Origin: a virus
Lineage: Duplodnaviria; Caudoviricetes
Direction: 5' to 3' (one strand)
DNA: 43,038 nucleotides
IMG/VR virus record: IMGVR_UViG_3300025160_000010
Location: 1 to 43,038 of that record
Numbering within the stretch: the stretch's first letter is position 1; each line of letters starts with the position of its first letter. The translations under genes were made by a program, and so were the position numbers. Of this stretch, positions 3,526 through 38,654 are shown in pieces. Under the pieces are notes generated by a model. That model was given only the letters and a program-made list of their open reading frames with translations, did no database searches and was not told the DNA's origin.

Positions 3526-4200
3526 TTAGGCCGGGGTTGCGACCATGCGGTTCTCGGCCGGTACGCCCAGAACCGTCGTGTCGATGCGCGCTGCCTGCTT
3601 GAATCGGTCATGCAGCCACGTGAAGTTCTTCTGGAACCGCTCGTCCGGGAACCAGGTGAAGGGACGCAGGCAGAAGTGCTCGCAGAAGGCATCGATGATC
3701 CAGGCGGTCCCCTCCATCTCCCAGGTCTGCAGGACCGCGAGTGTGCCGTAGAGATCGAAGCCGTCCATCGTTTCGTCAAACCGGAACCCCTTCGTGAGGT
3801 TCACCAGGATGACGCACTCGTCAAAGCAGCAGGCCGGCTCCGGGAACGTGTGGAGATCCGCCGTGTTGAATTGCTGGGGGATCCGCATGTCGTGCAGCCG
3901 CCCGCAGATCCGGCCTTGCAGATCCTTGCCGATCACGCCGGCCGTCATCCACGATTCGGGCAGCTTCCCGAGCTGCTCCCGCACCTGAGGCAGCCATCCC
4001 TGGCGGAAATACATATCCTGGTGGACCAGGGCGGCCACGTCCGCCCCCTCCGCCTCCATGAGGGCCAGGAGCCTATTGAGTCCCTGCGTGGCGGAATCCG
4101 GGGCCTTGATAAAGTGCATCTCACCCTGGATCTCCGACTGTCGCAGGACCATATCCAGACGGAGGATGTCGCTCACGAGGACGCCAAAGCTGATCTTCAT
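3526..4200 (-). CDS. Glycosyltransferase-like protein (GT-A fold, Glyco_tranf_2_5-like)
   Basis: SATQGLN...LVHQDMYF...AGVIG...FRFDE...FDLYG; ATGA overlap with the methyltransferase. Confidence 0.72.
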   Translation of the reverse strand: MKISFGVLVSDILRLDMVLRQSEIQGEMHFIKAPDSATQGLNRLLALMEAEGADVAALVHQDMYFRQGWLPQVREQLGKLPESWMTAGVIGKDLQGRICGRLHDMRIPQQFNTADLHTFPEPACCFDECVILVNLTKGFRFDETMDGFDLYGTLAVLQTWEMEGTAWIIDAFCEHFCLRPFTWFPDERFQKNFTWLHDRFKQAARIDTTVLGVPAENRMVATPA

Positions 4201-4811
4201 GCCGCCACTTTCTGAAACACAGCCAGGCCGAGGGCGCGCGTGTGGCTGCGGGAGAGATACTCGCCGATGAAACGCACGCCAGGATCCGCCTTCAATTCCC
4301 GGACGACGCGAGCCACGCCCCATTCGGGCAGCGCCGAATCGTGCAGCACGAGGAAACCCCCCGGACGGAGCATCGGAAGGTACAAGATCGTGTCGAGTTT
4401 CACGCCGGGATAGTGATGATCCCCGTCAATCAAGATCACATCAAACGCCGGCATCTTTCCCAGGCTCGACAAGACGGCCTCATCCTGGGAGGCCCCAATG
4501 ATCTCCACGCGGGGCACATCCTTCAGGATGGTTTTCCGCAGGCCTGCCTTGTGGTGCTTATTGTCATCCACGAGGACGATCCGCTCGGGATGGAAAAAGT
4601 GATGCATGAGAAACACTGTCCCGCCGGCGGCTACCCCGATCTCCAGGTACGACTGTACCGCCTCACCCGACTCCAGTACGGCCAGGATGCACGGGCCCAA
4701 TTCGTCGGGAATCTGCTGGCAATGGATCCCGCCCTCGAAAACCCCGCCGAAGGTGGCCAGATCGTCCGATCCGGCCTCCAGGATAACGTCCTCTATCTGT
4801 CCGAGGATCAT
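4197..4811 (-). CDS. Class I SAM methyltransferase (Methyltransf_24-like)
   Basis: YLEIGVAAGG, FDVILIDGDH, LRPGGFLVLHD. Confidence 0.88.
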   Translation of the reverse strand: MILGQIEDVILEAGSDDLATFGGVFEGGIHCQQIPDELGPCILAVLESGEAVQSYLEIGVAAGGTVFLMHHFFHPERIVLVDDNKHHKAGLRKTILKDVPRVEIIGASQDEAVLSSLGKMPAFDVILIDGDHHYPGVKLDTILYLPMLRPGGFLVLHDSALPEWGVARVVRELKADPGVRFIGEYLSRSHTRALGLAVFQKVAA

Positions 4812-4815
4812 GGCT

Positions 4816-5226
4816 CTAGCTCTTCTGCCGCGTGACGAGATAATCCACGTGATAGGCCCACACCTGCACCGTTCCATCCGGGGTCGTATGGTCTTCATTC
4901 CCCGGCGTCGTGTTCTGCCAGGCGAAGCGGATCATGACGTGGCCCGTCACGGTCAACGCGCAATCGTCATAGAGCGCCCGTAAGTAGCCTACGATGTCCT
5001 CCACCTCGGCAGAGGAGCTTGCCGACGAGAAGACACTGAACTGGATCAGCGCCTCATCGCCGTCCTTGGCGAACACGTGATCCGGCGTGTCCGTGACGAC
5101 CATGTACACGGTATACGGATACGTCGCCCCCTCCGGCGCCCGGCCCTTGTACAGCCGCCCGCCGATGGCCGTTTCGAAGGCCGAGCCGGCGGCTTTGCCG
5201 TAGATGGCGGTGGTCAAAGCCTTCAC
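4816..5226 (-). CDS. Tail terminator (DUF3168-like)
   Basis: GRLYKGRAPEGATYPY, IQFSVFS motifs; neck position. Confidence 0.78.
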   Translation of the reverse strand: MKALTTAIYGKAAGSAFETAIGGRLYKGRAPEGATYPYTVYMVVTDTPDHVFAKDGDEALIQFSVFSSASSSAEVEDIVGYLRALYDDCALTVTGHVMIRFAWQNTTPGNEDHTTPDGTVQVWAYHVDYLVTRQKS

Positions 5227-6749: not shown

Positions 6750-6779
6750 TCCACAGATTACGCAGATTACGCAGATTCA
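6750..6779. repeat. 9-mer tandem repeat (cagattacg) x3, single arm
   Basis: ccacagattacgcagattacgcagattc. Confidence 0.7.
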
Positions 6780-9296
6780 TACCTGCGCCAGGCGAACCCG
6801 AGCCTGCAACTCCCGCAGCCGCAGACGCGGGATCAGCTCCTCCAGCCGGTACCGGGGCGGCAGCTCCCGGAATCCGAAGGCGGTCAACTCGAGGCCGACG
6901 ATGGCGGTCGCGATCGCCTCTGTCAGGCCGACCGCCTCGGCCAGGAGGCGGGTCACGGACCGGCGCAGGTCCTCGGTCAGCCCCACCTGCTCGGCCAGCA
7001 GACTGGCCACATCGGCGCCCAGGTCCTCGGTGATCCCCAGGGTCTCGGCCGCAATCTTCATGACCTGGATCCCGAGGCTTTCGACAAAGCTGACCGTATC
7101 GCCCAGGGCCTGGAGCCTGACCAAGGTGTTCACCACGCTTTCGCTCAGCCCGAGGTTCTCGGCAATTCCGCGTCGGGTATCGCGGAGCGTGGCCTCGGTC
7201 GTCTCGAGGGCATCCACCAAGGTCCGCTGGACGCTGGCGATCAAGGCCTCTGTCAGGCCGAGAGCATCGGCGAACCGCCTGGCGGCCTGGAATTGCAGGC
7301 TCTCGGTCGCGCCCATGGCATCGGCGAATACGGTCACCCCGACCTTCTCCGCCACCAGGTCCTCACTTAGGCCCAGGATCTCGGCAAAGACCTTCATGGG
7401 CTCCCGGCCCGTGGCCTCGGCCAACTGCCCGCTTTCCTGAATCACCCGCTGGATCTGGCGCGCCAGGCTCTCGGTCAGCCCCAGGTCCTCCGCGGCCTGC
7501 CGGGCGGTTTGACGTTGAAGTGATTCCACGGTGGACAGGCTGTCCCCCAGCTCGAGCAGGCCCAACTTGCTGGCCACCAGTCCCTCGGACACCCCCAGCG
7601 TCTCCGCGAGAGCCTTCCCCGGTTGGCGTGCCGAGGCCTCGCCCAGGGCGGTCACATCGGCCAGGGATCGCTGGACGGCTCGGATCACGGACTCCGTCAA
7701 CCCCAGGCTGTCGGCCATATTCTTCGTGAAGCCCCCGGCGGTCAGCGCCTCCTGCAGATCCACCCCCTCGGCCATGGCCACGCCGGCCAGGCGCCGCAGG
7801 CTCTCCGTGAGCTGTGGGCTTTCCTCGATCCGGCGCTGGATCTGCCGGCTGACCGTTTCGGACATCAGCAGGACGTCGGTGGGAGCAATGGACCAATCCC
7901 CGTAGAGCTCCTCGGCGACGGACAGCGTATCGGCGATGGCCTGCTGATAGACCGTGGACCGGCCCGCGAAGCTGCCGTATAGCCCGCTGATCAGCAGCCC
8001 CGGGACGAACTGGGTGAACGGCCCGATGGTCCGTCCCCCCGCCGGGGCGACCAGGGATTCCTCGAACGACAGGACATCCCCGATCGCGCGCCCTGTGATG
8101 CGGGTGAGCGCCTCCGTAAAGCCCAGGACGTCCGCGGTCCGGATCGCGGAGCCGCGCAGAAGCGTTTCGCTCAGGCCGACCGTGTCCGACAACTGCCGCA
8201 GGAACAGCGTGGTCGGCGTGACCTGCTCGGTCAATTCCAGGCCCTCACTGATCGCCGTCAGGAACAGCCGTCCCTGCATCTCCGACAGATCCAGGACCTC
8301 CGCCAGGGTCTTCCCGACCGTCTGCGCTCTGCTCTCTGCGCTTTGCACCGTCTCCGCCAGGCTCCTCCCGGTCCGCCGCTCCAAGGCCTCCACCAGGCCG
8401 GCAGTCTCGGCGATCGCCTTACCGGCCATCTGTAGGCGGGCCTCGGTCGGTTGCAGGTCTTCTGCGATCGCGTGCTGTAGCTGAATCGTCCGGGCCTCTG
8501 GGAGATTCAGCGTATCAGCCAGGAGCAAGGCAACCTGCTTGGCGAGCGTCTCGGTCGGGGTCAGCGCCTCCTCGTGGGTGAGTGCCCGCAGGATGAGGCT
8601 GACGACCGATTCCTCGAGGCCAACGGTCTCCGCCAAGATGCGCCGGACCTGCCGGACCGTCAGCTCCTCCAGGCTGGATGCCTCGGCCATCGCCGTCTGC
8701 GCCTGTTTGATCTGGCTCTCCGTCAGGCCGGGGATCTCCGCCAGGATCCGCACCATCTGCCGAACCAGGGCCTCGCTGGGCGTCAAGACATCGCTGACCG
8801 GTTGCTCATAGACGCCGGCCCGGGCAAAGCTGCCATAGCGCCCCCCGATCAGCATCCCCGGAACGAGCTGGGTCAGGTCGCCGACGGGATGGGGGCCGGA
8901 GGCCTGCAGGGCCTCGGACGGGCCCAGGACCTCGGCCAGGATCTGCTGCACCTGCCGGATCTGGGCCTCTGTGAGATCGGTCGTCTCCGCAAGGCCCCTG
9001 GCCACCTGCAGCGCCAAGGCCTCCGTGAACCCGACCGTATCCGAGACCGCCTGGTCATAGGTGGTGGCGCCGCTGCGGGCAAAGCTGCCATAGCGCCCCC
9101 CGATGAGCATCCCAGGCACGAACTGGGTCAGATCGCCGACGGGATGCGGGCCGGAGGCCTGCAGGACCTCGGTCACCCCTAGCGTGTCCGCGACCGCGAG
9201 CGGGATCTCCGAGCTTTGCAGCAGGCGCTTGCTGGTGCCATCCTCCAGCAGCCGCTTGCTGGTGCCATCCTCGAGGAGACGGTAATCCAGGCTCAT
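6777..9296 (-). CDS. 839-aa repeat protein (about 21-aa D/E-x-L-G-L-x-E repeats), putative fibre/scaffold
   Basis: Roughly 30 or more units such as AETLGVSEGL; three TQ(F/L)VPG..I.G.YGSFA inserts; N-terminal RLLEDGTSK tandem. Confidence 0.8.
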   Translation of the reverse strand: MSLDYRLLEDGTSKRLLEDGTSKRLLQSSEIPLAVADTLGVTEVLQASGPHPVGDLTQFVPGMLIGGRYGSFARSGATTYDQAVSDTVGFTEALALQVARGLAETTDLTEAQIRQVQQILAEVLGPSEALQASGPHPVGDLTQLVPGMLIGGRYGSFARAGVYEQPVSDVLTPSEALVRQMVRILAEIPGLTESQIKQAQTAMAEASSLEELTVRQVRRILAETVGLEESVVSLILRALTHEEALTPTETLAKQVALLLADTLNLPEARTIQLQHAIAEDLQPTEARLQMAGKAIAETAGLVEALERRTGRSLAETVQSAESRAQTVGKTLAEVLDLSEMQGRLFLTAISEGLELTEQVTPTTLFLRQLSDTVGLSETLLRGSAIRTADVLGFTEALTRITGRAIGDVLSFEESLVAPAGGRTIGPFTQFVPGLLISGLYGSFAGRSTVYQQAIADTLSVAEELYGDWSIAPTDVLLMSETVSRQIQRRIEESPQLTESLRRLAGVAMAEGVDLQEALTAGGFTKNMADSLGLTESVIRAVQRSLADVTALGEASARQPGKALAETLGVSEGLVASKLGLLELGDSLSTVESLQRQTARQAAEDLGLTESLARQIQRVIQESGQLAEATGREPMKVFAEILGLSEDLVAEKVGVTVFADAMGATESLQFQAARRFADALGLTEALIASVQRTLVDALETTEATLRDTRRGIAENLGLSESVVNTLVRLQALGDTVSFVESLGIQVMKIAAETLGITEDLGADVASLLAEQVGLTEDLRRSVTRLLAEAVGLTEAIATAIVGLELTAFGFRELPPRYRLEELIPRLRLRELQARVRLAQV

Positions 9297-9925
9297 TAGA
9301 GGTTCAGCGCCTCCGCGATCACCTGCTTGTAGGTCAAGGCCTCGCTCGCGCCCGTGGTGACCGCCAGACCCACGATCAGATTGGCGACCGTCGAATCAAA
9401 CGTGGACCCCGCCCCCTGGAGCACTTCCACCTCATTCGCAAACAGACCGGTCGCGGAGAGCTGGTGCATGGCCCGCGAGGCCCCGTGCGATGTGGCGGCC
9501 GCGCCAAGCGTGCGAATGATGAAGGTGATGACCTGGCTGCCCGTGTCAGCGGCCGCCGTCGGGGTTCCCGAGGTCAGGGTGACGATGGTGGCATCCGCCG
9601 TCGTCCCGTTCGTCCCGATCTTGACCAGGTGGGAGCGGGCGGCCGTGCCCGCCGCCGTCTTGGTAAAGATCAGCCGCCAGCGAAAGATCGTGCCGACCCG
9701 CAGCAGCCCCGCCGGGACGGCGATGTTTGAATTCGTCAGATAGGTCGTCGCGCCAGCGCCGGGCGATTGATCCCCGACCGAGACATTTCGCAGGACGTTG
9801 CCCGCCCAGGCCTTGACGAGCGTGCCGCTCACCTTCTTCGACACGCCCGCCTCATTGATCTCAAATTCATTGGCGTCCGCCATCGCGGACGCGGCGCTGA
9901 GGGCGCTGATCTTGGAGTCAGCCAT
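9296..9925 (-). CDS. Virion accessory/fibre protein
   Basis: N-terminal MADSKISAL...SKKV motif typical of phage fibre attachment segments; Ala/Thr-rich. Confidence 0.7.
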   Translation of the reverse strand: MADSKISALSAASAMADANEFEINEAGVSKKVSGTLVKAWAGNVLRNVSVGDQSPGAGATTYLTNSNIAVPAGLLRVGTIFRWRLIFTKTAAGTAARSHLVKIGTNGTTADATIVTLTSGTPTAAADTGSQVITFIIRTLGAAATSHGASRAMHQLSATGLFANEVEVLQGAGSTFDSTVANLIVGLAVTTGASEALTYKQVIAEALNL

Positions 9926-9931
9926 GGTCCC

Positions 9932-10822
9932 CTAGAGAATGACGAAGCTGTCGCCGCTCACCGGCGCGGTGGTCAAGGTCTCCACCGTCAGCGCCGGACC
10001 CGTCGTATTGGCCGTGATCTTGGTGCCCTGCTGCCGCAGATTGGCCGTGGTCGTGCCTTTCCGGAAGATCAAGATTTTTCCTTTGAGCTGGTCGGCTATC
10101 GACGGGGAGACATCGATGGCACTACAGACGATGTTGGTCGTGGTGGACCCGGCCCCCACGGTGCCGAATCCCACGCAATCGAGCGTGTACGTCCAGCGGT
10201 TCAGAAGATCCTGGTCCCCCCCGATGGCTTTAATGTTCGCCAGGAGAGCATTGACGGCCAGATCGGTGAGCAGCACATCGTAGGTCGTCGTGTTGTCCGG
10301 CGTGGTCTCCCAGTTCGGGACGATGGTGGCGACCTTGGTGGAGGTGTTGTAGGCGGTGATGATCCGTGCCTGGTTGTTCGCCCCCCCGGTCCCACCGCCG
10401 CCGGTCCCGCCCGTGGTCTTGACGATGCACCCGACGATGCTATACGCCGCCGCGCCGGCGGCCAGCGTGATGGATCCCGCCGCGCCGGCCTGCGCCGTCC
10501 CCGATTCCAGGGTCGGCAGCAGCCTGGGCTTCAACGTCATCAGGGTATTCTTCGGACCGCTGGCCGCTTTCGCTGCCAGGGCTGCGATCGAGCAATCCAT
10601 CTCGGCGCCGGAGATGGTCAGCATCCCCACGCCATTGCTCCCGACGATCGTCGTCACCTCCTCAGCGCAGTCCGCGAAGTCCCCGCCATCCTTGCTAATC
10701 TCTGTGTCCGGCGTCGTGGGATCGGTCGGGTCCCCGTCCGCATCCAGGTAGGGGATGTTGACCGTATATCGCGCCCCCTTCACCGGGTACGGCAGCGATC
10801 CGTGACTCGCATGATTGGCCAT
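9932..10822 (-). CDS. Virion accessory protein
   Basis: Thr/Gly-rich; ISKDGG, QARIITAY...W.T.PD.T..Y repeated beta module; AGGAG RBS. Confidence 0.7.
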   Translation of the reverse strand: MANHASHGSLPYPVKGARYTVNIPYLDADGDPTDPTTPDTEISKDGGDFADCAEEVTTIVGSNGVGMLTISGAEMDCSIAALAAKAASGPKNTLMTLKPRLLPTLESGTAQAGAAGSITLAAGAAAYSIVGCIVKTTGGTGGGGTGGANNQARIITAYNTSTKVATIVPNWETTPDNTTTYDVLLTDLAVNALLANIKAIGGDQDLLNRWTYTLDCVGFGTVGAGSTTTNIVCSAIDVSPSIADQLKGKILIFRKGTTTANLRQQGTKITANTTGPALTVETLTTAPVSGDSFVIL

Positions 10823-10842
10823 CTATTCTCCTTGCTGGGATG

Positions 10843-10903
10843 GCTGACCTCTGATCGCTGACCACTGATGTCAGAGAACAGAGGTCAGATGTCAGTGATC
10901 AGT
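10843..10903. repeat. Intergenic 7-mer inverted microsatellite hairpin
   Basis: ctgacct ctgatcg ctgacca ctga ... tcagaga acagagg tcagatg tcagtga tcag. Confidence 0.75.
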
Positions 10904-12122
10904 AGATTCCCGCCCCCACCCGCGCCCCGTGCTCCACGCCCCCGTGCCGCCGCATGGCGGGATGACCCCCGCCAGCCGCCGCCGGCTTGAACGCCACACC
11001 GCCGATGCCCCAGTTGATGCTGCTCCCCGAGCCAGCCCAGGACATGACGCCGCCAGCCGTGCCAGGTTGCGTAGAGGTGGATTGGGTGATGTTGTCTGAC
11101 GTAGCAAACACCTCGCGTGTCCGTTCCGTCTGATCGGCTCCCACGGTGCCCAGTTCAATGCCAGAACCCGCCTCGTGCCAGTACACGTTCGCGCACACGA
11201 GATCATCCGCCCCGACACTGCCCACCGGCACGGTGGGCGACGTCGTCTGCCCAGTCGCGGTCGCAGGGGTCCCGACAGGCGTCGTTTGATCGACGCCCGT
11301 CATGGTGATAACACCGAACGCATGCTCGTCAGGCGTGGTGCTTACGAGGTCGCTCGTCACAGTCTGGGCGCTCGCCGCCACTCCGGCGAGGGCGTATCCG
11401 GCATGGGCGTAAAGGAAACCGCTTGCATACGTCGCATCCCACAACTCGGTCATGCCGCTGCCACCGTAGGTGACCTCGCCGAGGCTTCCTCCGCCACCCG
11501 CTGAATTTCCGACTCCGACAAAAGCTGCGGGGTTGGGCGAACCGGCAGTGTGCGAGAGGCTCACCACACCATCCCCAGCAAGCTCCTGCACGTCCGTGGC
11601 CGCGTCGAAGGCCACGGAGTTTTTATGCCGAGGGAGCAGGGGCGCGGGCGAGTCGGTCGTCATCGCGAGGAGGATTTCCGTCTCTGCCGAGTCCCCCCGG
11701 AGCAGTTCGAGGACGAGATGCGCCTCCCTGACGTCGGCCAACTCACCGATTCGGGTCAGTGGGACGTCATAGTAATATCCCTCTGCATCCGGGATCGCCC
11801 TGGCTAGCCAGTCCTTCGCTCGTTGAGCCAAAAGCACGGTCGGCTTGTAGACGAGTCGATACTCCGCGATCTCTACACCCCGCCGATCGGTACGCAGACC
11901 GCCGCTCGCCTGCCCAACGCAGACGTGCTCTACGCCGCCTAGCCGATAAATGAGTGAGACACGCAGCGTCGCATCGGCATCCCAGATCATTGGGGCCACA
12001 GTCGTCGGCCGCCGGAGACGCACTTCCAGACGGCTCGTGAGGGGACTCACGACAACCCACGGCGTCTCGAAGTGGGGCGAGGACCGCTCCAGCCGAATGC
12101 GAATACGATCCGTCAGGCGCAT
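10899..12122 (-). CDS. Two-domain virion accessory protein
   Basis: C-terminal Ser/Thr/Gly-rich beta domain starting VAFDAA with TGVDQTTP motif; unrelated N-terminal domain. Confidence 0.65.
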   Translation of the reverse strand: MRLTDRIRIRLERSSPHFETPWVVVSPLTSRLEVRLRRPTTVAPMIWDADATLRVSLIYRLGGVEHVCVGQASGGLRTDRRGVEIAEYRLVYKPTVLLAQRAKDWLARAIPDAEGYYYDVPLTRIGELADVREAHLVLELLRGDSAETEILLAMTTDSPAPLLPRHKNSVAFDAATDVQELAGDGVVSLSHTAGSPNPAAFVGVGNSAGGGGSLGEVTYGGSGMTELWDATYASGFLYAHAGYALAGVAASAQTVTSDLVSTTPDEHAFGVITMTGVDQTTPVGTPATATGQTTSPTVPVGSVGADDLVCANVYWHEAGSGIELGTVGADQTERTREVFATSDNITQSTSTQPGTAGGVMSWAGSGSSINWGIGGVAFKPAAAGGGHPAMRRHGGVEHGARVGAGIY

Positions 12123-12129
12123 AGGTCTC

Positions 12130-14646
12130 TCATGGCACTACCCGCAAATTCGTTGGTGCAGATGGAGGCGCACCGCCCGTCCCATCACTTGCAGTAAAGC
12201 TCGTGAAGCCAAAGTTGGCATTATTGGACCCGTCGTTATAGAGTCCAATACCTGGAGCCCCATCGGTCCAGGTGTTGTCGGTCGCGCGCATATACAGAAC
12301 GTCGTTGACATACGCGTTAATCGTCCCGCCGGCAATCGTGGCCTTGACGATGTCGCCGGTGCTCAGCGCCACCGCGCCCCCGTTGAACTCGGTGATCGGC
12401 AGGATCGTGAAGTTTCCCAGCGGGCCGTTCCAGCGCACGATCTGCGCGTAGTCTCCGTCCCACGCAAATAAGATTTCGTATCCGCGATTGACCCCCGCAC
12501 TGATCGCGGACCGGAGACGAATCTCGACCTCGGCCAACCCCCCAGGATTGTTAATATACACGGTGCCTTGTGCCTGCTGATCTGCCCCCCAGGTGCCAGC
12601 GAGGATGGCCGTCGAATCATCAAACCCCCCACTGCCGTCCTGCTGGCCGATGGCACGGTTGTTCGCGTTGACCAGGACATCCTGCCAGGCCAGGCCCACA
12701 GTCTTGCCGCCGATCCACTGCCCACCCTCGGAGAGCGGATTTTCGACGAGCGGGAAATTCGTGGTGTAGGTGCCACCGCTCTGGATCGCGCCATACGCCG
12801 ATGGAGTGAAGCTCGCTATGGCGCCGCCCGCAGCCTCGTAGGCGAGCTGCGCGGGAATCTTGTTCGCGTGTCCCGCCAAATACGTTCCGCCCGACACGTC
12901 GGGACCGATGGGCGGCCAGACGGCGGTGCCGACGCCGTTAATGACGAAGAATGGCGGACGGCTAGACTTATAGAAGGAATTGGGAAGGACTTGACTCGCA
13001 GGAACGGGATTCGGGAAGACCGCACCCCCGGACGGCACCTCTGCCGACAGCCACCGTGTCCCGCCGGTCGTGGCGTAATTGCCCCATAGCATCGCCGTGG
13101 TCCACACGCCCGAATCCGAGGCGACACCATCGGTCGCGCCGCTGCTGGCATTGGGGCCGGAATAGCCGAGCCGGAACCCGAACGAGGAAAACCGGTCATA
13201 CTTCGTGCTGTCGGTCGCCAGGGTTTTGTAGACCGTCGTCGCGCCGATGACGTTCCCGACGAAATTGTGCCAGCGGTGGTAGGAGTTGAGATCAAAGCCG
13301 TGGTCCTGGGCGTGGTTACGATAGTAGGTCTGGAGAGCACTCGACCCATGGAAATCGTCGCCCCACATCTTCCAGAAGGAGTTGCCCTCCACAAGATTCA
13401 GCGAACTCCCGACCTGATGCTGCTGGAAGCCGCCCTCCTGCTGCTGATCGCTCACGTACCGCTCATAATTATAGGCGATGACGTTCCCCGAGGAGATCCC
13501 GAGGATCATCACCGGGGATTCCACTTCATTGAGGATGTTATTTTCCACGAGCGAATCGAACGCTCCTTTGAGCGCGATGCCATAGGAGGTGGTTGTGAAG
13601 AGCCCGCCCCCGGTCATCCGATCAATCCACCCATCCCGAATGGTGATGTTCCGACTATCGCTGACGTAGATCGCATAGTCGGTCGCGCCGCCCGCATGCC
13701 AGGAGGTGTACCGGGGGACGATCCCCACGCCCTTGATCCACGAATCGACAGCCCAGTTGAGGCCGATGACGGACAACTTTTCGGATGTCACGCTGGTCGT
13801 CTGAATCCGCAGATATTCCAGCCCGGCATTGCGGATAGTCGAGGCGGCTGGAATCCAGCCGGCTTTCGGGCTCCGCGCGGAGACCCAGGTGCCGGTGGGG
13901 AGTCGAATCCCGGGCGCGGGGATCGTGACCGCCGTGCCGTTCACGCTCACCACACGGACCCGTTGCTGCTGGCCGCTGAGCAGCGTTTCTCCTGAGCCCT
14001 CCCGCGAGACCGCATTGGAGGCCGCGGTCTTCTGGCTCACGAAATACCCGCTATTCGGCACCGAGGCGTCCGGATCGTCACTCTGCCAGAGCACGAGGGT
14101 ATCCCCGGCAGCGAGTCCTGTCGGTGTCGAGGCCAGGTTGACAACGGTCGCTCCCTGGCTATATATGCCTGCCTGGCCATTCGTCCCGGTCCAGTTGATC
14201 TTCGCGGAGGGGACACTGGCCAAGGCGGGCGCGACCTCCACCATGCCGGTATCCGTCTGCTGGAACATGACGGCGACTTGACCGGACCCCCAGAAGAAGC
14301 TGGTGTTGCCGAATGCGGTGAAGTTGAGGAGCGTGGACATCCCCTGGCCACGCAGGGTGACGTTGGACTGCATGACGATGGACGTGGAGAGATTGAAGGT
14401 CCCGGCTCCGAGTTCGACATACGTGCCCGACGGAGCAGCGGCGAGGGCAGTATTGATCGTCGCCGCCGTCCCCGTGTAGGCCGCAATCGTGGAGCCGGAC
14501 TTCGTCCGGTTCGTTGGGATGCCGCCGGTGACTCCGGGGGACGTCCAGTCTGTCGCCCGCGTGGCGGCGAGGATGCCGGACCAGAGCTGGCCGGATGCGG
14601 CGGTGGCCCAGAGCAGTATGGCCAGGGAGAGCAGCAGGCGTATCAT
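12130..14646 (-). CDS. Secreted beta-helix (pectin-lyase-like) protein with lectin-like domain and C-terminal PSAPTNL strand
   Basis: Signal peptide MIRLLLSLAILLWATAASG; DWTSPGVTGGIP, VTLRGQG, SLVENN/GNVIAYN/NLVEGN beta-helix repeats. Confidence 0.8.
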   Translation of the reverse strand: MIRLLLSLAILLWATAASGQLWSGILAATRATDWTSPGVTGGIPTNRTKSGSTIAAYTGTAATINTALAAAPSGTYVELGAGTFNLSTSIVMQSNVTLRGQGMSTLLNFTAFGNTSFFWGSGQVAVMFQQTDTGMVEVAPALASVPSAKINWTGTNGQAGIYSQGATVVNLASTPTGLAAGDTLVLWQSDDPDASVPNSGYFVSQKTAASNAVSREGSGETLLSGQQQRVRVVSVNGTAVTIPAPGIRLPTGTWVSARSPKAGWIPAASTIRNAGLEYLRIQTTSVTSEKLSVIGLNWAVDSWIKGVGIVPRYTSWHAGGATDYAIYVSDSRNITIRDGWIDRMTGGGLFTTTSYGIALKGAFDSLVENNILNEVESPVMILGISSGNVIAYNYERYVSDQQQEGGFQQHQVGSSLNLVEGNSFWKMWGDDFHGSSALQTYYRNHAQDHGFDLNSYHRWHNFVGNVIGATTVYKTLATDSTKYDRFSSFGFRLGYSGPNASSGATDGVASDSGVWTTAMLWGNYATTGGTRWLSAEVPSGGAVFPNPVPASQVLPNSFYKSSRPPFFVINGVGTAVWPPIGPDVSGGTYLAGHANKIPAQLAYEAAGGAIASFTPSAYGAIQSGGTYTTNFPLVENPLSEGGQWIGGKTVGLAWQDVLVNANNRAIGQQDGSGGFDDSTAILAGTWGADQQAQGTVYINNPGGLAEVEIRLRSAISAGVNRGYEILFAWDGDYAQIVRWNGPLGNFTILPITEFNGGAVALSTGDIVKATIAGGTINAYVNDVLYMRATDNTWTDGAPGIGLYNDGSNNANFGFTSFTASDGTGGAPPSAPTNLRVVP

Positions 14647-14715
14647 GACTCGCGCGATCCTTCCTCGGGAATTACCTGTGGTCCCAATATTGCCACAGAC
14701 ACCGCAGCCAGGCCT

Positions 14716-15078
14716 TTACGGCTCTAGTGTTACTCCAAGCTGGCCGGGGGCCACAGGGATCGTAAAAGGGACCGAAACCCCTGCCGTGTTCGAGTAGGGA
14801 CCTTTCCCGGCGGCATTGCGCCCGTTCACGCGCCAGCAGTAGGTCCCTCCCTCCGCAATTGTCCCATCCCGGTAGGTAACGATATTCGCGCCGACGCTCC
14901 CGATCACGCCCCACGTTGCCGCTGAGCCAGCGCATTGCTCGGTCTTGCGCTCTACATCGAAGTTGGTCTCGTTCGCGGAGTTGTCCTGCCAGGTCAGGAC
15001 TGCGGTCGCGGCCAAGGCCGACGGGGCAAAGGCGAGGAACAAGAGCAACAGCGTACCGAGGATCCACACTCGTCTCAT
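14716..15078 (-). CDS. Secreted single FN3-domain protein
   Basis: Signal peptide MRRVWILGTLLLLFLAFAPSALA; LTWQDNSANE, YCWRV...N..G...YSN; ends PVAPGQLGV; GAGG RBS. Confidence 0.85.
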   Translation of the reverse strand: MRRVWILGTLLLLFLAFAPSALAATAVLTWQDNSANETNFDVERKTEQCAGSAATWGVIGSVGANIVTYRDGTIAEGGTYCWRVNGRNAAGKGPYSNTAGVSVPFTIPVAPGQLGVTLEP

Positions 15079-15095
15079 CACACACCTCTCTGTCT

Positions 15096-15551
15096 CTACG
15101 GGGTTAATCGTCTCCGGATCTGCAGCCGCTCCCGAACGGTCTGGCCGGCTCGGGTACCGATCGTTTCGCCCGGGGTCAGGGCATCCGCCGGCGTCCGGAT
15201 GTAGAACGCGTCGAAGCTGATCTCGTTGCTCGGGCTGCTCTCGCCGTCGGCGTTGGCCGCGGTCACGATCGCCCACCAGGTCCCGCTGACTCCGATGGCT
15301 GTCAGAGCGTCCAGGCTGCGAGCCGCGGGATTCTGGACGACCGTCGTGCGCGTGTAATTCCCGGAGGCTGGCCCGACTTTGACGCGGAACTCCGTGACCG
15401 TCCCGCCCCCGCCCTGGGCCCAGTCCCAGTCGATGGTCGAAGTTTCCATGTTGACGGTGGCCGCGGACGGGGCGACAGGGACAGCGACAGCGATGGAGAC
15501 CGCGAAGAGAACGGCCATCCAGCCGAACCGCCGAATCGACTTGTCGGTCAT
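15096..15551 (-). CDS. Secreted single FN3-like protein with basic C-terminal tail
   Basis: Signal-like N-terminus; IDWDW, FRVKVGPASGNYT, VTAANADGESSPSNE. Confidence 0.8.
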   Translation of the reverse strand: MTDKSIRRFGWMAVLFAVSIAVAVPVAPSAATVNMETSTIDWDWAQGGGGTVTEFRVKVGPASGNYTRTTVVQNPAARSLDALTAIGVSGTWWAIVTAANADGESSPSNEISFDAFYIRTPADALTPGETIGTRAGQTVRERLQIRRRLTP

Positions 15552-15583
15552 TGGCAACTCAACAGTCAGAACCAGCAAACCAC

Positions 15584-16477
15584 TTATTCCACCGTTAGGT
15601 CATACGTGGTCTGCAGGGAGTCTCCTGAGCTGAGGTTGACCGCGCTGAACACCACGCGACTCCACATCGTGCCGCCGCCGGTGGCCGCCTGGGACAAGAG
15701 GCACCACTCGGTGATGGCCACGCTGGCGTCCACCGTGTTCGTCCCGACCGTTCTGAAGATATTGGTCGCAGTGCCCTCGGTCAGGGAGCCGGTCGCGCGC
15801 GTGCTATCCGGATTGTACTGGGTCGTCAGCTCGGTCGTGCAGCCGGTATCGGTCTCGGTCGCGCTGACGGCCGAGGTCCCGATCCCGTGGTACTTCATGA
15901 TCTCCAGCTCGACCGAGTTCTGCCAGGCATCCACCAGGAAGTTTTCCCCGGCATTCACGATCAGGTTCTTGATCGGTCCGCGCTGGTCAAAGAGCGTGTA
16001 ACGCTCCCCGGCCGCCCAGGCTGTGCCGATCAGGCTGTCGGCCCAGGTATAGGAGACCGGGACGAAGCTGGAGCCGATCTTGAGATAGCCGCCGGCCACG
16101 TCCGGGCGGAATGCCTTCACGGTCAGGGCGCCCCGCAGCAGCGGCTTCGCCTGGAACTCCTCCGCGGCCATCTTGCCCTGGGCGATGATCTTTTCCTGGC
16201 CGTCCGCTGTCCTTCTGACCTTCTGCCATCTGACCTCTTCTTTCTGCTTCACCTGCTCCTGGGCCACCAGCAGCCGATACTCCTTGACCGCCGGCACGAG
16301 CTGCCAGAAGAAGGCATAGCCGGCGACCGCCAGGCCGATCGCCGTGATCGAGCCCCAGAGGCCGATCTTGTTCCTAAGCTGCTTCTTCCGTTCCTCGATC
16401 GTTGGCGACATCGGTCCTCCTCCAGGCGTCTTGCTGACGCCAAAGCCTTCACTTGGAGTCATGCCTTCACGAGCCAC
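15584..16477 (-). CDS. Membrane-anchored protein with phage structural-type C-terminal domain
   Basis: TM helix IGLWGSITAIGLAVAGYAFFW; C-terminal NLIVNAG...GIGT...FSAVNL..GDSLQTTY; alternative start 16411. Confidence 0.7.
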   Translation of the reverse strand: MAREGMTPSEGFGVSKTPGGGPMSPTIEERKKQLRNKIGLWGSITAIGLAVAGYAFFWQLVPAVKEYRLLVAQEQVKQKEEVRWQKVRRTADGQEKIIAQGKMAAEEFQAKPLLRGALTVKAFRPDVAGGYLKIGSSFVPVSYTWADSLIGTAWAAGERYTLFDQRGPIKNLIVNAGENFLVDAWQNSVELEIMKYHGIGTSAVSATETDTGCTTELTTQYNPDSTRATGSLTEGTATNIFRTVGTNTVDASVAITEWCLLSQAATGGGTMWSRVVFSAVNLSSGDSLQTTYDLTVE

Positions 16478-32756: not shown

Positions 32757-34544
32757 TCAGTCAAACAGCGCCTCGACCGCGCGCACCTCGCCGCTTGCAA
32801 TCACCACCAGCCGCCGCCCCTGCAACCGCTGCAGATAGGTATCTCGGGAGGATCGTTTGTATCCCGTCTTCTCCGACAGCACCTCCCGATCCACGCCCTT
32901 GGGGTATGCCTCTACGGCCACGCGCAGAATCTCTCCCTCTCCCTTGGGCAGCCGTGCCAGCCAGTGTTCCAGCAGTTCCCGCCCAGTAGGCAGCGGCTTG
33001 AAATCCGGACCTAGGGCATCGCCGCCGGCCTCGGTTGCCCTGAGAATCCCTCCGCCCTCTTCCACGAGACCGGCCTGCCGTAACCGTTGCAGATAGGTAT
33101 CACGGCTGCTTCGCCGATACCCGGTGAGGATGGTGAGCTGTTCCCGCGTGGCGCCCTCGGGGTACTGCGCCACAGCCGTCAAGATGCAGAGTTCCCCCTT
33201 CCCGATCCCATCCGGTCGGCTGGCTCTGTGGGGTTGCTCCCTCCGTACCGGCGTCGGCGCCACCGTAAAAGGCCGATTGTGCCGGACGTCCACCTGGACC
33301 TCGACATCCCCGCCCAGGGCCGCCTGCAGCCGCTTCAGAATCCTGCCACTTTCCTTGCGCAGGCGGTCAAACTCCCGATGGCGGTCCTGTGTCTTGCCCT
33401 CGAGCAGCCTGAGCGAGGTCTGCACGGCCCCATCGATGGCCTTCTGGATCGCAGCGGCATCCACGGACTCTCCCGCTTGCCCGAAGAAGTCTTGAGCATT
33501 GATTTGGATGACGAACTTGATTGCTTCCTCCAGGGCTCCCTTGAGCGCCTTGATCAGACCTGGGAGACGCGGATCGGCGGCCACTGCCGGTTGCGCCTTC
33601 TGCGCCTGGGCGATCACCCCTTTGAGCGATCGGATCTCCGTTCGCAGCTCGGCCTCGGTCCGGGCGCGCTCCTCGGCCTGCTTGGGGAGATCCGAGAGCT
33701 TGGGGAGCAGCGCCTTCACCTTCTCCGGCGGGGGCGGGGGCTCGAATCCGTGCTTGGAGTCCTGGATTTCGTGACTCGTTTGCACCGGCCCGACCTGGAC
33801 CAGGATCCGCTCTTTCGTGATGGCCCGGCCCAGGGCGTAGAAGTTCCCCGGCTCCAAGACTCGCATCTCCTTATCGAATGCCCTCCGATCCTCCTTTCGG
33901 ATGCTAAGAAGATCTGCCGCCCGCTTCAGGTCCACATCCTCGAACGTCGGTCCGATCAGACGATTATGCAGCTCCGCGCTGGCGTCCTTATCGATCTTCG
34001 CCAGGCGTTGCGTCGCCCACACAGCACAGAACCGTCGCTTGCGTCCGCGGGTGGGCAGGCTGATCATGGCGTCACGGGCCTCGCTCTCCCCCGCGCCCTT
34101 CTCTGGACAAAACATGTGCGCCTCGTCCACCATGACCACCGTCGGGCGCCACAGACTCTTCGGGGCATCGATCAAGGCTTCGAGGAACAGGCGCACCCAG
34201 CGATGGCGATCCAGGGGCTTCATCTCGTACAAGTCGCATACCGCCGAGGCGCGCAGCTCCAGCAGCCGCTGTGCCACCAGGGCCGCCGATCGCGTGTCCG
34301 CCGGCGTCTCGCCCCCCTTGCCCACCAGGACATATCCGTACTGCTCCCGCAAGGTGGCGAACTCGCCCTCGGGATCCAGGATCAGGACGGGGATCTTGCC
34401 AAAGAGCTGCTCCGCCAGCCGCCGGATCAGCCAGGATTTCCCGCCGCCGCTATTCGCCTGCACCAGCAGGCGCGTGCGCAGGAGGAGGTCCAGGTCGATC
34501 TCCACCCGCCGTTTGCCAGCATGGCCTAGGAGAATGCCGCTCAT
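32757..34544 (-). CDS. HerA/FtsK-like ATPase (DUF87) with C-terminal tandem winged helices
   Basis: ANSGGGKS, LDPEGEF, VDEAHMFCPE, RGRKR, ATQR; twin TGY(R/K)RSSRDTYLQRL. Confidence 0.88.
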   Translation of the reverse strand: MSGILLGHAGKRRVEIDLDLLLRTRLLVQANSGGGKSWLIRRLAEQLFGKIPVLILDPEGEFATLREQYGYVLVGKGGETPADTRSAALVAQRLLELRASAVCDLYEMKPLDRHRWVRLFLEALIDAPKSLWRPTVVMVDEAHMFCPEKGAGESEARDAMISLPTRGRKRRFCAVWATQRLAKIDKDASAELHNRLIGPTFEDVDLKRAADLLSIRKEDRRAFDKEMRVLEPGNFYALGRAITKERILVQVGPVQTSHEIQDSKHGFEPPPPPEKVKALLPKLSDLPKQAEERARTEAELRTEIRSLKGVIAQAQKAQPAVAADPRLPGLIKALKGALEEAIKFVIQINAQDFFGQAGESVDAAAIQKAIDGAVQTSLRLLEGKTQDRHREFDRLRKESGRILKRLQAALGGDVEVQVDVRHNRPFTVAPTPVRREQPHRASRPDGIGKGELCILTAVAQYPEGATREQLTILTGYRRSSRDTYLQRLRQAGLVEEGGGILRATEAGGDALGPDFKPLPTGRELLEHWLARLPKGEGEILRVAVEAYPKGVDREVLSEKTGYKRSSRDTYLQRLQGRRLVVIASGEVRAVEALFD

Positions 34545-35296
34545 CGCTCTAGCCTCTCCAATGCCCGCTTGACCGCCTTCGCCACGGCCCGGCCCATGGG
34601 GAGGGGGACGCCATTACCGATTGCGCTGATCTTCCCGGCCACTGTGAAGGGGCATTTATCCAAGTAGTCAGCCGGTAATCCTTGGCCTACCGCCGCCGCC
34701 GCCGCCGCCGCCTTGCGAGTCTTATACCCGAGGTCCCGCGCCTTGCTGATCCGTCCGCTGCTCTTTGGACGCCCGCTACCACCGATTCTGACGGGACGAT
34801 CCCTGCCACCTCCGCTCGCCAAGATCGCAGGCCCAGGGTCCGGACGATGCAGCGCCAGCCACTCGATCTCCAGCTTGAGGCCCTCGCGCGTCCCGAACGA
34901 GAAGCGGCGCACCCTCGAAGTCTCCCCACCAACATGCGCGTCGCAGACGAGTGCCCCACAGGTCACATAGCCCCCCACCAAGGGTAACGGTGCATTGGGG
35001 ACGTTTTCCATCAGGAACCATGTCGGAGCGGCTTCGCGCGCGCATCGCTCGAACTCCGGTATCAGGTTGTCGGCCACGCGATACCCGTTGTGCTCCACAA
35101 GGAATCGCAGTCGGCTGAACGCTTGACACGGCGGCCCCCCGATTACCCCGTCGAACTTCCCTGCGGGCGGGTGAAAGGTGCGGATGTCGCCGCCCCAGAG
35201 GAGGTCGGGACCACGAACGACGCAGAAGCCTTCCTGCTCGAAGGCCATATCAAGCAGGCCGATGCCTGGGAACAAGGATAGGACCAGACCGCTCAT
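34541..35296 (-). CDS. DNA (cytosine-5) methyltransferase
   Basis: LSLFPGIG, GGPPCQAFS, MENV, IGNGVP. Confidence 0.9.
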   Translation of the reverse strand: MSGLVLSLFPGIGLLDMAFEQEGFCVVRGPDLLWGGDIRTFHPPAGKFDGVIGGPPCQAFSRLRFLVEHNGYRVADNLIPEFERCAREAAPTWFLMENVPNAPLPLVGGYVTCGALVCDAHVGGETSRVRRFSFGTREGLKLEIEWLALHRPDPGPAILASGGGRDRPVRIGGSGRPKSSGRISKARDLGYKTRKAAAAAAAVGQGLPADYLDKCPFTVAGKISAIGNGVPLPMGRAVAKAVKRALERLER

Positions 35297-35520
35297 GCCT
35301 GGGCCCTCGTGAGGTTGGCGCTTATATCAGTAATCTCCACCACCGGCCCGCAGATCGGCGGGCCATTCACGCTCGATTGCCCATGGCCATAGTGCTCCGT
35401 CGGCCCCCGCCGGTATCCCAGGAGGACCTGGGCGCTGCACAGCTTCAGCCCGCAGCCGCAGCAGTGATAGACCTGGCGGGAGATATGCGCACCCCCGCAC
35501 AAGGAACACGCCCAGCTCAC
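35293..35520 (-). CDS. Small Cys-rich protein
   Basis: GTG start overlapping upstream stop; CSLC...CCGC...C. Confidence 0.5.
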   Translation of the reverse strand: MSWACSLCGGAHISRQVYHCCGCGLKLCSAQVLLGYRRGPTEHYGHGQSSVNGPPICGPVVEITDISANLTRAQA

Positions 35521-36047
35521 GCCGTCTTCTCCCGACCGCCCACCGCCCGCGCGTGGCGGACGAAGGCCACAGCGTTGTCGAAGCCCAGCCACATCCGGAT
35601 GCCCTCGGCCACCAGTTCCCGCTCCGCCACGTTGAGGCCACAGACCTGACAGCCGTTGTCCCGCTGCTTCGGGGGCTTCACCACCGCCGGGGTTTGCTTC
35701 CGTCGCGGCCTCCCAGCGGGCCGGCCTTGGCGTTTCTTCGGCAACTCTGCCCCATCTGGCCGGGCCTTGCAGGTCTTCTTGTGCTCGCTCAGGTTCGCCC
35801 GCAGCTTGTGGCACCATGGACACTCGACCCGATTCCCTTTCACGCTCATGGCCGTCTCCTCCGACGCTCTGCGCTCTGCGCCTGCCCTGTGGGAGTGCGA
35901 CCCTTCTCCAACAGGGCGAGGCTCTTTGCGCTCCTCCACCGGATACTGCGGCCCCAGGTCCCGACAGCCCGCGCAATAGGGCGAGTCCGGAATGAACTGC
36001 GTCGGGTGCCGCTCCTGACGACAGCCAGGGCAGGGGCGAGCCTTCAT
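35517..36047 (-). CDS. Multi-Zn-finger hypothetical protein
   Basis: CPGC/CAGC, CPWC...H...C, CQVC. Confidence 0.55.
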   Translation of the reverse strand: MKARPCPGCRQERHPTQFIPDSPYCAGCRDLGPQYPVEERKEPRPVGEGSHSHRAGAERRASEETAMSVKGNRVECPWCHKLRANLSEHKKTCKARPDGAELPKKRQGRPAGRPRRKQTPAVVKPPKQRDNGCQVCGLNVAERELVAEGIRMWLGFDNAVAFVRHARAVGGREKTA

Positions 36048-36147
36048 GGCCACTCTCGCCACCCATAGCCAATTGAGCCAGCCATTCCGCGACACCACCG
36101 CCACAGGATGCCAGCCCACGCCTGAATACGTCCGAGACCATAAACAA

Positions 36148-38412: not shown

Positions 38413-38654
38413 GCCTGCCCTTCTGCCCAAGTGATCGCCACAGCCAGCGCCGCCGCCCGCTTCCGCCGGTGCCCCGCCGCGATCTCGTACCCGCCGGCCG
38501 GCCGCGGCCGCAGCAACAGGGGGGCCAGGACGCCCACCTTCCGCATGCTGGCCGCCAGCTCCTGCAGCTTGGCCTGATCATAATGCCGGCGGGGGTTCCA
38601 CGGCGATTCGTGCAGCTCGGTCAACGCCACCAACATGCTCACGGGTTCCGTCAT
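38409..38654 (-). pseudogene. Truncated ParB N-terminal domain
   Basis: NPRRHYD...LAASMRKVGVLAPLLLR...YEIAAGHRR, then ends after about 15 residues. Confidence 0.65.

Follow-up and report, generated by a model that had tools for sequence, protein, structure and literature searches.

For the type V pili of Bacteroidota (Mfa1/FimA), it has been proposed that the groove of a subunit is filled by a strand from the preceding one, one candidate donor being the C-terminal strand (PMC5789003, excerpt). In the immunoglobulin (Ig)-like donor-strand fibers CS17, Tas, CupE and TLP-1 the donated strand is N-terminal (PMC11494351, excerpt), and the Pam pili of the Candidate Phyla Radiation (CPR) use predicted membrane chaperones (PMC13278184, excerpt). 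A natural fibronectin type III (FN3) domain completed by strands of two chains is known from the interdigitated Fn3 self-association module of HCF-1 (PMC6582346, excerpt; PDB 4go6). The present study concerns three adjacent genes on the minus strand of the phage record IMGVR_UViG_3300025160_000010 (43,038 nucleotides; this whole stretch is referred to as the window). Their products will be called the base, the shaft and the tip. The base and the shaft each contain an FN3 domain, the tip is a β-helix protein, and both the shaft and the tip end in an FN3-type strand A. We judge it somewhat probable that the three proteins form an exported, self-chaining FN3 fiber, begun by the tagged β-helix protein and ended by the base.

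In the proposed mechanism, the three exported proteins would assemble outside the cytoplasm as a bead-chain fiber. The C-terminal strand A of one shaft subunit (the plug) would insert into the groove of the next copy (the socket), the tip would plug its own tail into the first shaft subunit, and the base would terminate the chain. Export would keep the folding of plug and socket out of the cytoplasm and would permit disulfide formation. Since the groove is left empty by gene design, no chaperone, usher or maturation protease would in principle be needed.

Putative signal peptides of the three proteins

The three adjacent open reading frames (ORFs) that the earlier note described are present with the motifs it quoted (Table 1). 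By anatomy, all three products have a putative Sec-type signal peptide, with a basic N-region, a hydrophobic core and a small-residue cleavage motif. The best 11-residue hydropathy is 2.65–2.95 in the trio versus at most 1.95 in 11 neighboring ORFs. The invariance of A21, A23 and A24 across eight shaft sequences is consistent with such a signal peptide.

Predicted structure of the shaft

The mature shaft has 97 residues and forms a single FN3 domain, which starts two residues before strand B. The N-terminal strand A that a seven-stranded FN3 domain has of its own is absent, and the strand-A motif is located at the C terminus, in the register of a tandem array, as the earlier note had claimed for this 120-residue protein. 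That note had both FN3 proteins beginning at strand B. This holds for the shaft; in the base, about nine residues precede strand B, and the base family conserves a V-D-I-N-type segment there.

A model of the shaft monomer, obtained with AlphaFold2 (AF2) from a 105-row alignment, has the six strands B, C, C', E, F and G, with a Trp in strand B and a Tyr in strand F, and a predicted local distance difference test (pLDDT) score of 95.4. Residues 80–97 are unpaired in this model and are not folded back onto their own domain, the outcome that had been named beforehand as contrary to the proposal. The top Foldseek and VIA matches of the model are FN3 domains (best Z score 11.0, root mean square deviation 2.2 over 76 residues). 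The single-domain matches begin 10–20 residues into the target, that is, past strand A, and several tandem FN3 structures align with all 97 residues of the shaft. None of the listed fold matches is a solved filament of this kind.

From strand G to the strand-A proline, the shaft family has a median distance of 13 (63 measurable of the 105 rows) versus a median of 13 in 50 natural tandem junctions, and the shaft profile alignment runs across titin domain boundaries. In the FN3 fold, strand G finishes at the end opposite to the start of strand A. With this geometry and so short a junction, the tail of the shaft cannot reach its own groove. Pro85 and Pro88 in the tail are conserved in at least 90% of the 105 rows. 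Exactly two cysteines are found in 66 of these rows, a pattern that would fit an oxidizing compartment.

Model of the shaft-shaft complex

The three-copy model of the shaft has a score of 0.71, versus 0.01 for the best control. Of 30 solved pairs, 20 reached the mark set for this score, as did 1 of 23 single chains; these counts are only rough for three copies. The three-copy runs share at least 98% of their contacts and have pLDDT values of at least 90. Residues 81–97 of copy 2 contact residues 1–11 and 59–78 of copy 3 (strands B, F and G), with Pro88 lying on Trp7 and Leu91 on Tyr59. The tail is thus predicted to occupy the strand-A groove of a neighboring copy, which is the intermolecular strand that the earlier note had expected in shaft homo-oligomers. 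No reciprocal or ring-closing contact is listed for the best run, and as the tail of the acceptor is outside the listed interface, this run corresponds to an open chain.

Strand complementation between shaft subunits is likely. The formation of long open chains, with more than a few subunits, would be just on the probable side. A closed strand-swapped dimer or small ring, in which two or three copies fill each other's grooves and leave no open chain, is very unlikely: strand-swapped FN3 dimers exist (PDB 4m6a, by its title) and FN3 domain swapping and oligomerization are described in a review (PMC7140400, excerpt), but the best run modeled neither arrangement and the shaft junction is as short as those in extended tandem arrays.

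Distribution of the shaft family

A first search found seven relatives of the shaft, all of the same layout and with an invariant Cys pair. A profile search gave 197 matches, and the statements on the shaft family made here are based on the best 120 of them. A signal, a start at strand B, one domain and a tail were recognized by regular expression (regex) in 78 of the 121 short shaft homologs examined; such layout calls have a few errors each way, and the profile favors proteins with these features of signal, start and tail. One relative (L082) consists of two shaft-type domains fused in the same register, with a free strand A at the end. In three other shaft-like proteins (L093, L136 and L076, the sequence of the last being incomplete at its end), strand G and the terminal strand A are separated by a whole extra domain.

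The three nearest Atlas clusters of the shaft are 96–100% viral among members with a taxon record. The carriers of the shaft span different capsid and tail types, which indicates that the shaft gene is mobile. In the 15 of 64 parts of the genome contigs that were scanned, none of the 72 best loci encodes a stand-alone shaft; 63 have ordinary FN3 domains that include strand A, 2 have multidomain proteins with a signal and a B-strand start, 4 have other arrangements, and 3 are without the motif. Among the INPHARED phages there is one weak shaft match, within a long fibronectin-like protein, and no tip match. Scans of viral contigs with single proteins gave no match for shaft, tip or base, and neither did a four-row alignment of the base, so that profiles are needed.

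The tip and its portable tag

The β-helix region of the tip has profile matches that are all below the curated cut-offs (TIGR03805, E 4e-7; polygalacturonase 1bhe, E 0.002; a tail spike PHROG, E 0.001), and a single-sequence AF2 model of the tip is uninformative (pLDDT 32.8). The tip may bind or cut polysaccharides. Its N terminus is a signal peptide by anatomy, and not the virion anchor of a tail spike made in the cytoplasm; 22 of its relatives are signal-less. The earlier note had the β-helix protein ending in an orphan A-strand. This tag is present, with the refinement that an extra domain lies between the β-helix and the tail. The extra domain has no match in Pfam, PHROGs or PDB sequences, nor to a candidate virion protein. 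Most tip homologs do not have this domain, which means that the tail survives domain exchange.

A tail of the strict pattern ends 58 of 119 tip homologs, versus 190 of 23,800 internal windows (0.8%). With hand labels, a looser pattern and six truncated rows set aside, the tag is found in 57 of the 91 relatives with a signal and in 2 of the 22 without one. The untagged signal-less relatives require at least six changes on the tree and therefore do not form one clade. In five relatives, located at five separate places in the tree, the tag is right after the signal peptide, at the mature N terminus, and none of these five has a C-terminal tag. To judge from these sequences, the strand-A tail behaves as a secretion-linked portable module (a plug) in the tip family. 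The tip probably plugs into a strand-less FN3 domain.

A different explanation of the tails is that the FN3 proteins are stable six-stranded monomers and that the motif at the end either directs recognition or sorting by a host factor or is left over as a relic of FN3 arrays that were truncated. Gain and loss of the tag are frequent (32 changes among 58 rows), and a signal followed by a B-strand start is found at 50 of 159 loci, in many cases with unrelated domains after it. In addition, strand-less FN3 domains with no donor are common. We nonetheless regard this explanation as having little chance of being correct, given the conservation of the two tail prolines in the shaft and the burial of the tail in the groove of the three-copy model. 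Moreover, the tag tracks secretion and relocates to the N terminus in five lineages, which a relic would not do, and the NCBIfam models of sorting signals matched none of the 12 proteins tested.

Two genes that follow shaft genes (L008:1882-3189 and L009:1142-1828) encode a twin-arginine-like signal, a strand-A tag, a Met and then two unrelated domains. From their sequences, they look like a signal-plus-tag cassette prefixed to ordinary phage genes.

The base and the 839-residue repeat protein

The FN3 domain of the base is matched by the Pfam fn3 family with an E value of 0.011. A search of 1.84 billion representatives gave 444 matches for the base family, and the statements on this family are based on the best 150. 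Among the matches listed, a strand-A-type tail (loose pattern) ends 58 of the 86 short base relatives. The base therefore belongs to a second, putatively self-complementing family and has lost its donor strand. Its 38-residue tail is not strand A, in agreement with the earlier note, which described the third protein as having a different tail and no donor strand. The three nearest relatives of the base retain this odd tail and, like the base, are without the Cys pair of the family. The chances that the base accepts the shaft strand are evenly balanced.

Two other members of the base family (P0325 and P0336) are signal-less and strand-less, and have neither the family Cys pair nor a donor tail. 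They are candidate cytoplasmic sockets. A signal-less form of the base itself, starting at an internal Met before strand B, was considered and rejected: this residue is Ile in the relative P0244, and no ribosome-binding site was found by eye.

Part of the base tail resembles a repeat of the 839-residue ORF, in which 27 units of 18 residues are recognized. With a two-unit position-specific scoring matrix (PSSM), devised after the sequence was seen, the base tail scores 8.4 and those of the three relatives score 19.4, 13.3 and 8.8. The maximum is −2.1 among 15 phage proteins and 3.9 among 83 family controls, and 2 of 3,000 shuffles reach 8.4. A BLAST comparison of the base tail with the 839-residue protein is not significant (E 0.08), and the likeness is shown by the PSSM only. 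Because the tail has a basic stretch at its end, it might instead bind to an anionic surface. The 839-residue protein also has a Gly/Pro-rich insert of a different kind, present three times, and a short N-terminal motif, present twice. Its nearest Atlas clusters are viral where taxa are recorded, and similar repeat proteins are found in L102 and L303.

Gene neighborhoods

A donor gene beside an acceptor gene recurs with non-orthologous parts. At 3 of 33 shaft loci there is a second, C-tagged gene, which is always directly downstream and signal-less; the control for such tagged neighbors is not clean, with 18 matches in 59 loci, all from one unrelated family. In L093, L094 and L293, a tail-less socket gene is located directly before the shaft gene. 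For the tip, 42 viral loci were merged to 33 groups, and a small FN3-like neighbor is present for 5 of 7 tagged versus 3 of 26 untagged tips (p 0.004, or 0.009 with a borderline match). The phrog_5417 family is also found near shaft-type genes in L102, L105 and L290. In L102, the phrog_5417 gene, the shaft and a homolog of the repeat protein follow each other in the same order as in the window, with the repeat homolog 2.4 kb from the shaft gene.

These arrangements bear on a docking adaptor, in which strand A is a plug, the strand-less FN3 domain is a socket, and the shaft is a spacer of one or a few units that links tagged phage or host enzymes to an anchor. Tag and socket are found separately in many proteins, a tagged tip often has one socket gene next to it (L295, L297), and the complex model displays one interface only. 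Host partners would be plausible because many tip relatives look cellular by sequence. On the other hand, a subunit that is socket and plug at once contains nothing to stop its extension, which should continue unless capped, and most shaft loci are without a tagged neighbor, which is a better fit to a self-sufficient homopolymer. The adaptor is considered unlikely.

Several observations weigh against the self-chaining fiber. The complex score may arise because the model recalls tandem FN3 arrays with solved structures, whose geometry is the same, and a three-copy model cannot show a filament or its length. It is common for cellular proteins to have a strand-less FN3 domain but no donor on the same polypeptide (for example L010, L012–L014, L016, L020 and L022), so six strands may suffice for this fold; such domains could also be sockets for tagged partners. 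The groove of the base may be partly filled by its extra conserved N-terminal residues. The earlier note expected the three genes to co-occur in related genomes. This expectation was not borne out, as tblastn-detectable orthologs of any two of them were found together at 0 of 47 loci. In addition, 30 of the 33 shaft loci have no other C-tagged gene, and no terminal tag was detected in 29 of 86 signal-bearing tip relatives. With tags called by regex only, the association between tip tags and FN3-like neighbors weakens to 3 of 5 versus 5 of 28 (p 0.08). Two of these neighbors are weak matches (E 0.003–0.009), and five were in the seed of the second hidden Markov model (HMM), though they had already been found by the first HMMs. 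In L319 and L328 the shaft adjoins an untagged tip, which counts against a strict tag-socket rule. Finally, the score of the base tail is near the chance ceiling, with values of at least 8 for 9 of 3,346 unrelated frames, two of which are real repeat proteins. Together with the post hoc design of the score, this leaves the likeness between base tail and repeat protein only moderately supported.

Two further groups of neighboring genes were observed. Small secreted neighbors of tagged tips (L300:5402-5830, L300:7840-8325 and L313:7663-8328) have an apparently altered order of FN3 strands, with the strand-B-like Trp occurring late, and are perhaps another circular permutation of FN3. Directly after shaft genes, three signal-less proteins (L002:1184-1474, L003:8776-9069 and L084:10452-12110) have a variant tail, P-x-G-x-P-x-L-x-x-R. 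Two of them are strand-less FN3 proteins and one is a large repeat-rich protein. They are possible cytoplasmic or virion-bound plugs.

Destination of the proposed fiber

The favored destination, and the weakest step of the proposal, is release at lysis and attachment to an accessory-fiber layer of the virion through the repeat-like tail of the base. It is possible rather than probable, and is favored by the late-operon position of the genes and by the repeat-like tail. The signal peptides, and possibly lipidated sockets in other phages, favor a location in the cell envelope, and display on the host envelope is a doubtful but somewhat comparable option. A free fiber is less probable than either.

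The same assembly might be an appendage of lysogenic conversion on the host surface, with no link to the virion. This alternative differs in location only and overlaps the fiber proposed here; we consider it rather unlikely. The signal peptides and cysteine pairs point to the envelope, and in the tip-neighbor sockets of L300, L313, L315 and L329 a Cys follows the hydrophobic core (by eye) and is possibly lipidated. Among 28 shaft-type loci, 4 have only DNA-metabolism genes as recognizable neighbors, but 14 have head, tail, connector or lysis neighbors; 1 has other enzymes and 9 have no neighbor of known function. The trio is part of the run of late structural genes, and a consensus scan (a weak test) showed no promoter-like site ahead of it on the minus strand; no integrase was recognized among the 38 ORFs scanned of this incomplete record.

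In a more elaborate and improbable version of the self-chaining fiber, the fiber would form in the periplasm and clip onto the finished virion at lysis, the tail of the base would co-assemble with the cytoplasmic repeat protein, and enzymes with the same tag would be picked up. The result would be a particle with an enzyme-tipped appendage of variable length, made in a different compartment from the capsid and able to acquire host or phage enzymes. The parts of a virion are as a rule produced in the cytoplasm, and the presence of exported proteins in a late operon raises the question of whether some phages finish their particles at lysis.

Genome setting

The window is an incomplete genome of an HK97-like siphophage, and the record is cut inside what we take, by position and appearance, to be a tape-measure-like gene. 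A run of minus-strand genes encodes terminase, portal, ClpP protease, HK97-type capsid, adaptor, head closure, tail terminator and major tail proteins. The interval between capsid and adaptor is approximately 12 kb, contains mostly unannotated genes and houses the trio, as expected from the late-operon placement in the earlier note. A contig of another run matches positions 9000-16305 with seven letters different, which shows that the gene arrangement is not an assembly artefact. At least half of the sampled words of the region are present in six runs, all of them soil metagenomes, one of which may be the source run. There is no RNA run among the runs listed as holding the region.

Table 1. 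Positions of the trio, its segments and related genes in the window.
Feature	Position	Strand	Description
Base	15096..15551	minus	151 aa: signal peptide ~residues 1-30, FN3 without P-x-x-P strand A, 38-aa non-strand-A tail
Base tail segment	15117..15200	minus	Similar to ~1.5 of the 18-residue repeat units in the 839-aa ORF; also conserved in three nearest relatives
Shaft	14716..15078	minus	120 aa: signal peptide 1-23, six-stranded FN3 (B-G), Cys pair, C-terminal strand A
Shaft donor segment	14719..14769	minus	Mature residues 81-97; contacts next copy in model
Tip	12130..14646	minus	838 aa: signal peptide 1-19, right-handed β-helix region, unnamed second domain, C-terminal strand-A tag
Tip β-helix region	12814..14589	minus	Pectate-lyase/tail-spike-like, weak profile matches only
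Tip second domain	12169..12780	minus	~200 aa; no family found; absent from most homologs
Orphan strand-A tag at tip C terminus	12133..12168	minus	
phrog_5417-family gene	15584..16411	minus	Upstream of trio
839-aa repeat protein	6777..9296	minus	Signal-less; candidate partner of base tail
Major capsid gene	20064-18739	minus	Upstream flank of interval with trio
Head-tail adaptor gene	6345-5749	minus	Downstream flank of interval with trio

The phrog_5417-family ORF has an N-terminal hydrophobic segment and an in-frame extension ahead of the conserved domain. Between the tail terminator and major tail genes (3526-4898, minus strand) there is a Methyltransf_24 gene with a neighbor that looks, by eye and with no Pfam match, like a glycosyltransferase; the pair could modify glycans of the virion or the host. 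The early region (32757-38430, minus strand) encodes a HerA-like ATPase, a C5 methylase, and a helicase fused to an N6/N4 methylase.

Comparison with known systems

If the shaft polymerizes, one of the commonest folds would have given rise to a donor-strand fiber that does without chaperone, usher and protease. In standard annotation the shaft would be called just an FN3 protein, and shaft-type genes of at least two families are widespread among uncultured phages. The same principle, if true, would explain the P-x-x-P-x-x-L-x-V tails of many secreted environmental enzymes as a general plug. A self-chaining domain of 97 residues with a 12-residue plug would be a potential tool for protein assembly. 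In literature mostly outside subscription journals, no paper was found that describes an FN3 strand-A polymer or tag occurring naturally as a secreted or phage product.

The fold and the length of the G-to-A junction in the shaft are shared with tandem FN3 arrays (titin, fibronectin) and with FN3 proteins of phage virions. Tandem arrays are, however, one covalent chain in which each domain has its own strand A, unlike the shaft. The module of HCF-1, as described in the excerpt cited above, mediates a one-to-one association in the nucleus after proteolysis and comprises half a repeat; it is neither a secreted 12-residue tag nor a polymer.

The likeness to the type V pili is in the predicted secretion of shaft, tip and anchor from one gene cluster (PMC5789003, excerpt). 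The same excerpt describes the pilus subunits as two-domain lipoprotein precursors with a groove opened by the Rgp protease. In comparison, the phage subunit is a single FN3 domain, encoded by viral genes, with a groove that gene design leaves empty. Neither the base, the shaft nor the tip has a Cys after the hydrophobic core, and the strand is already absent from the N terminus of the mature shaft, with no further processing.

With the chaperone-usher pili, TasA, CupE, TLP-1 and Pam, as far as the excerpts cited describe them, the trio shares putative signal peptides and an incomplete β-sandwich that, in the model, is completed by the strand of another subunit. No chaperone or usher gene is found among the 38 ORFs scanned against Pfam in this incomplete record. 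The trio is a real feature, a proposed form of donor-strand assembly that belongs to neither the type V nor the chaperone-usher pili. It differs from the Ig-like donor-strand fibers in that the donor strand of the phage protein is C-terminal, the fold is FN3, and the polymer would copy a tandem FN3 array.

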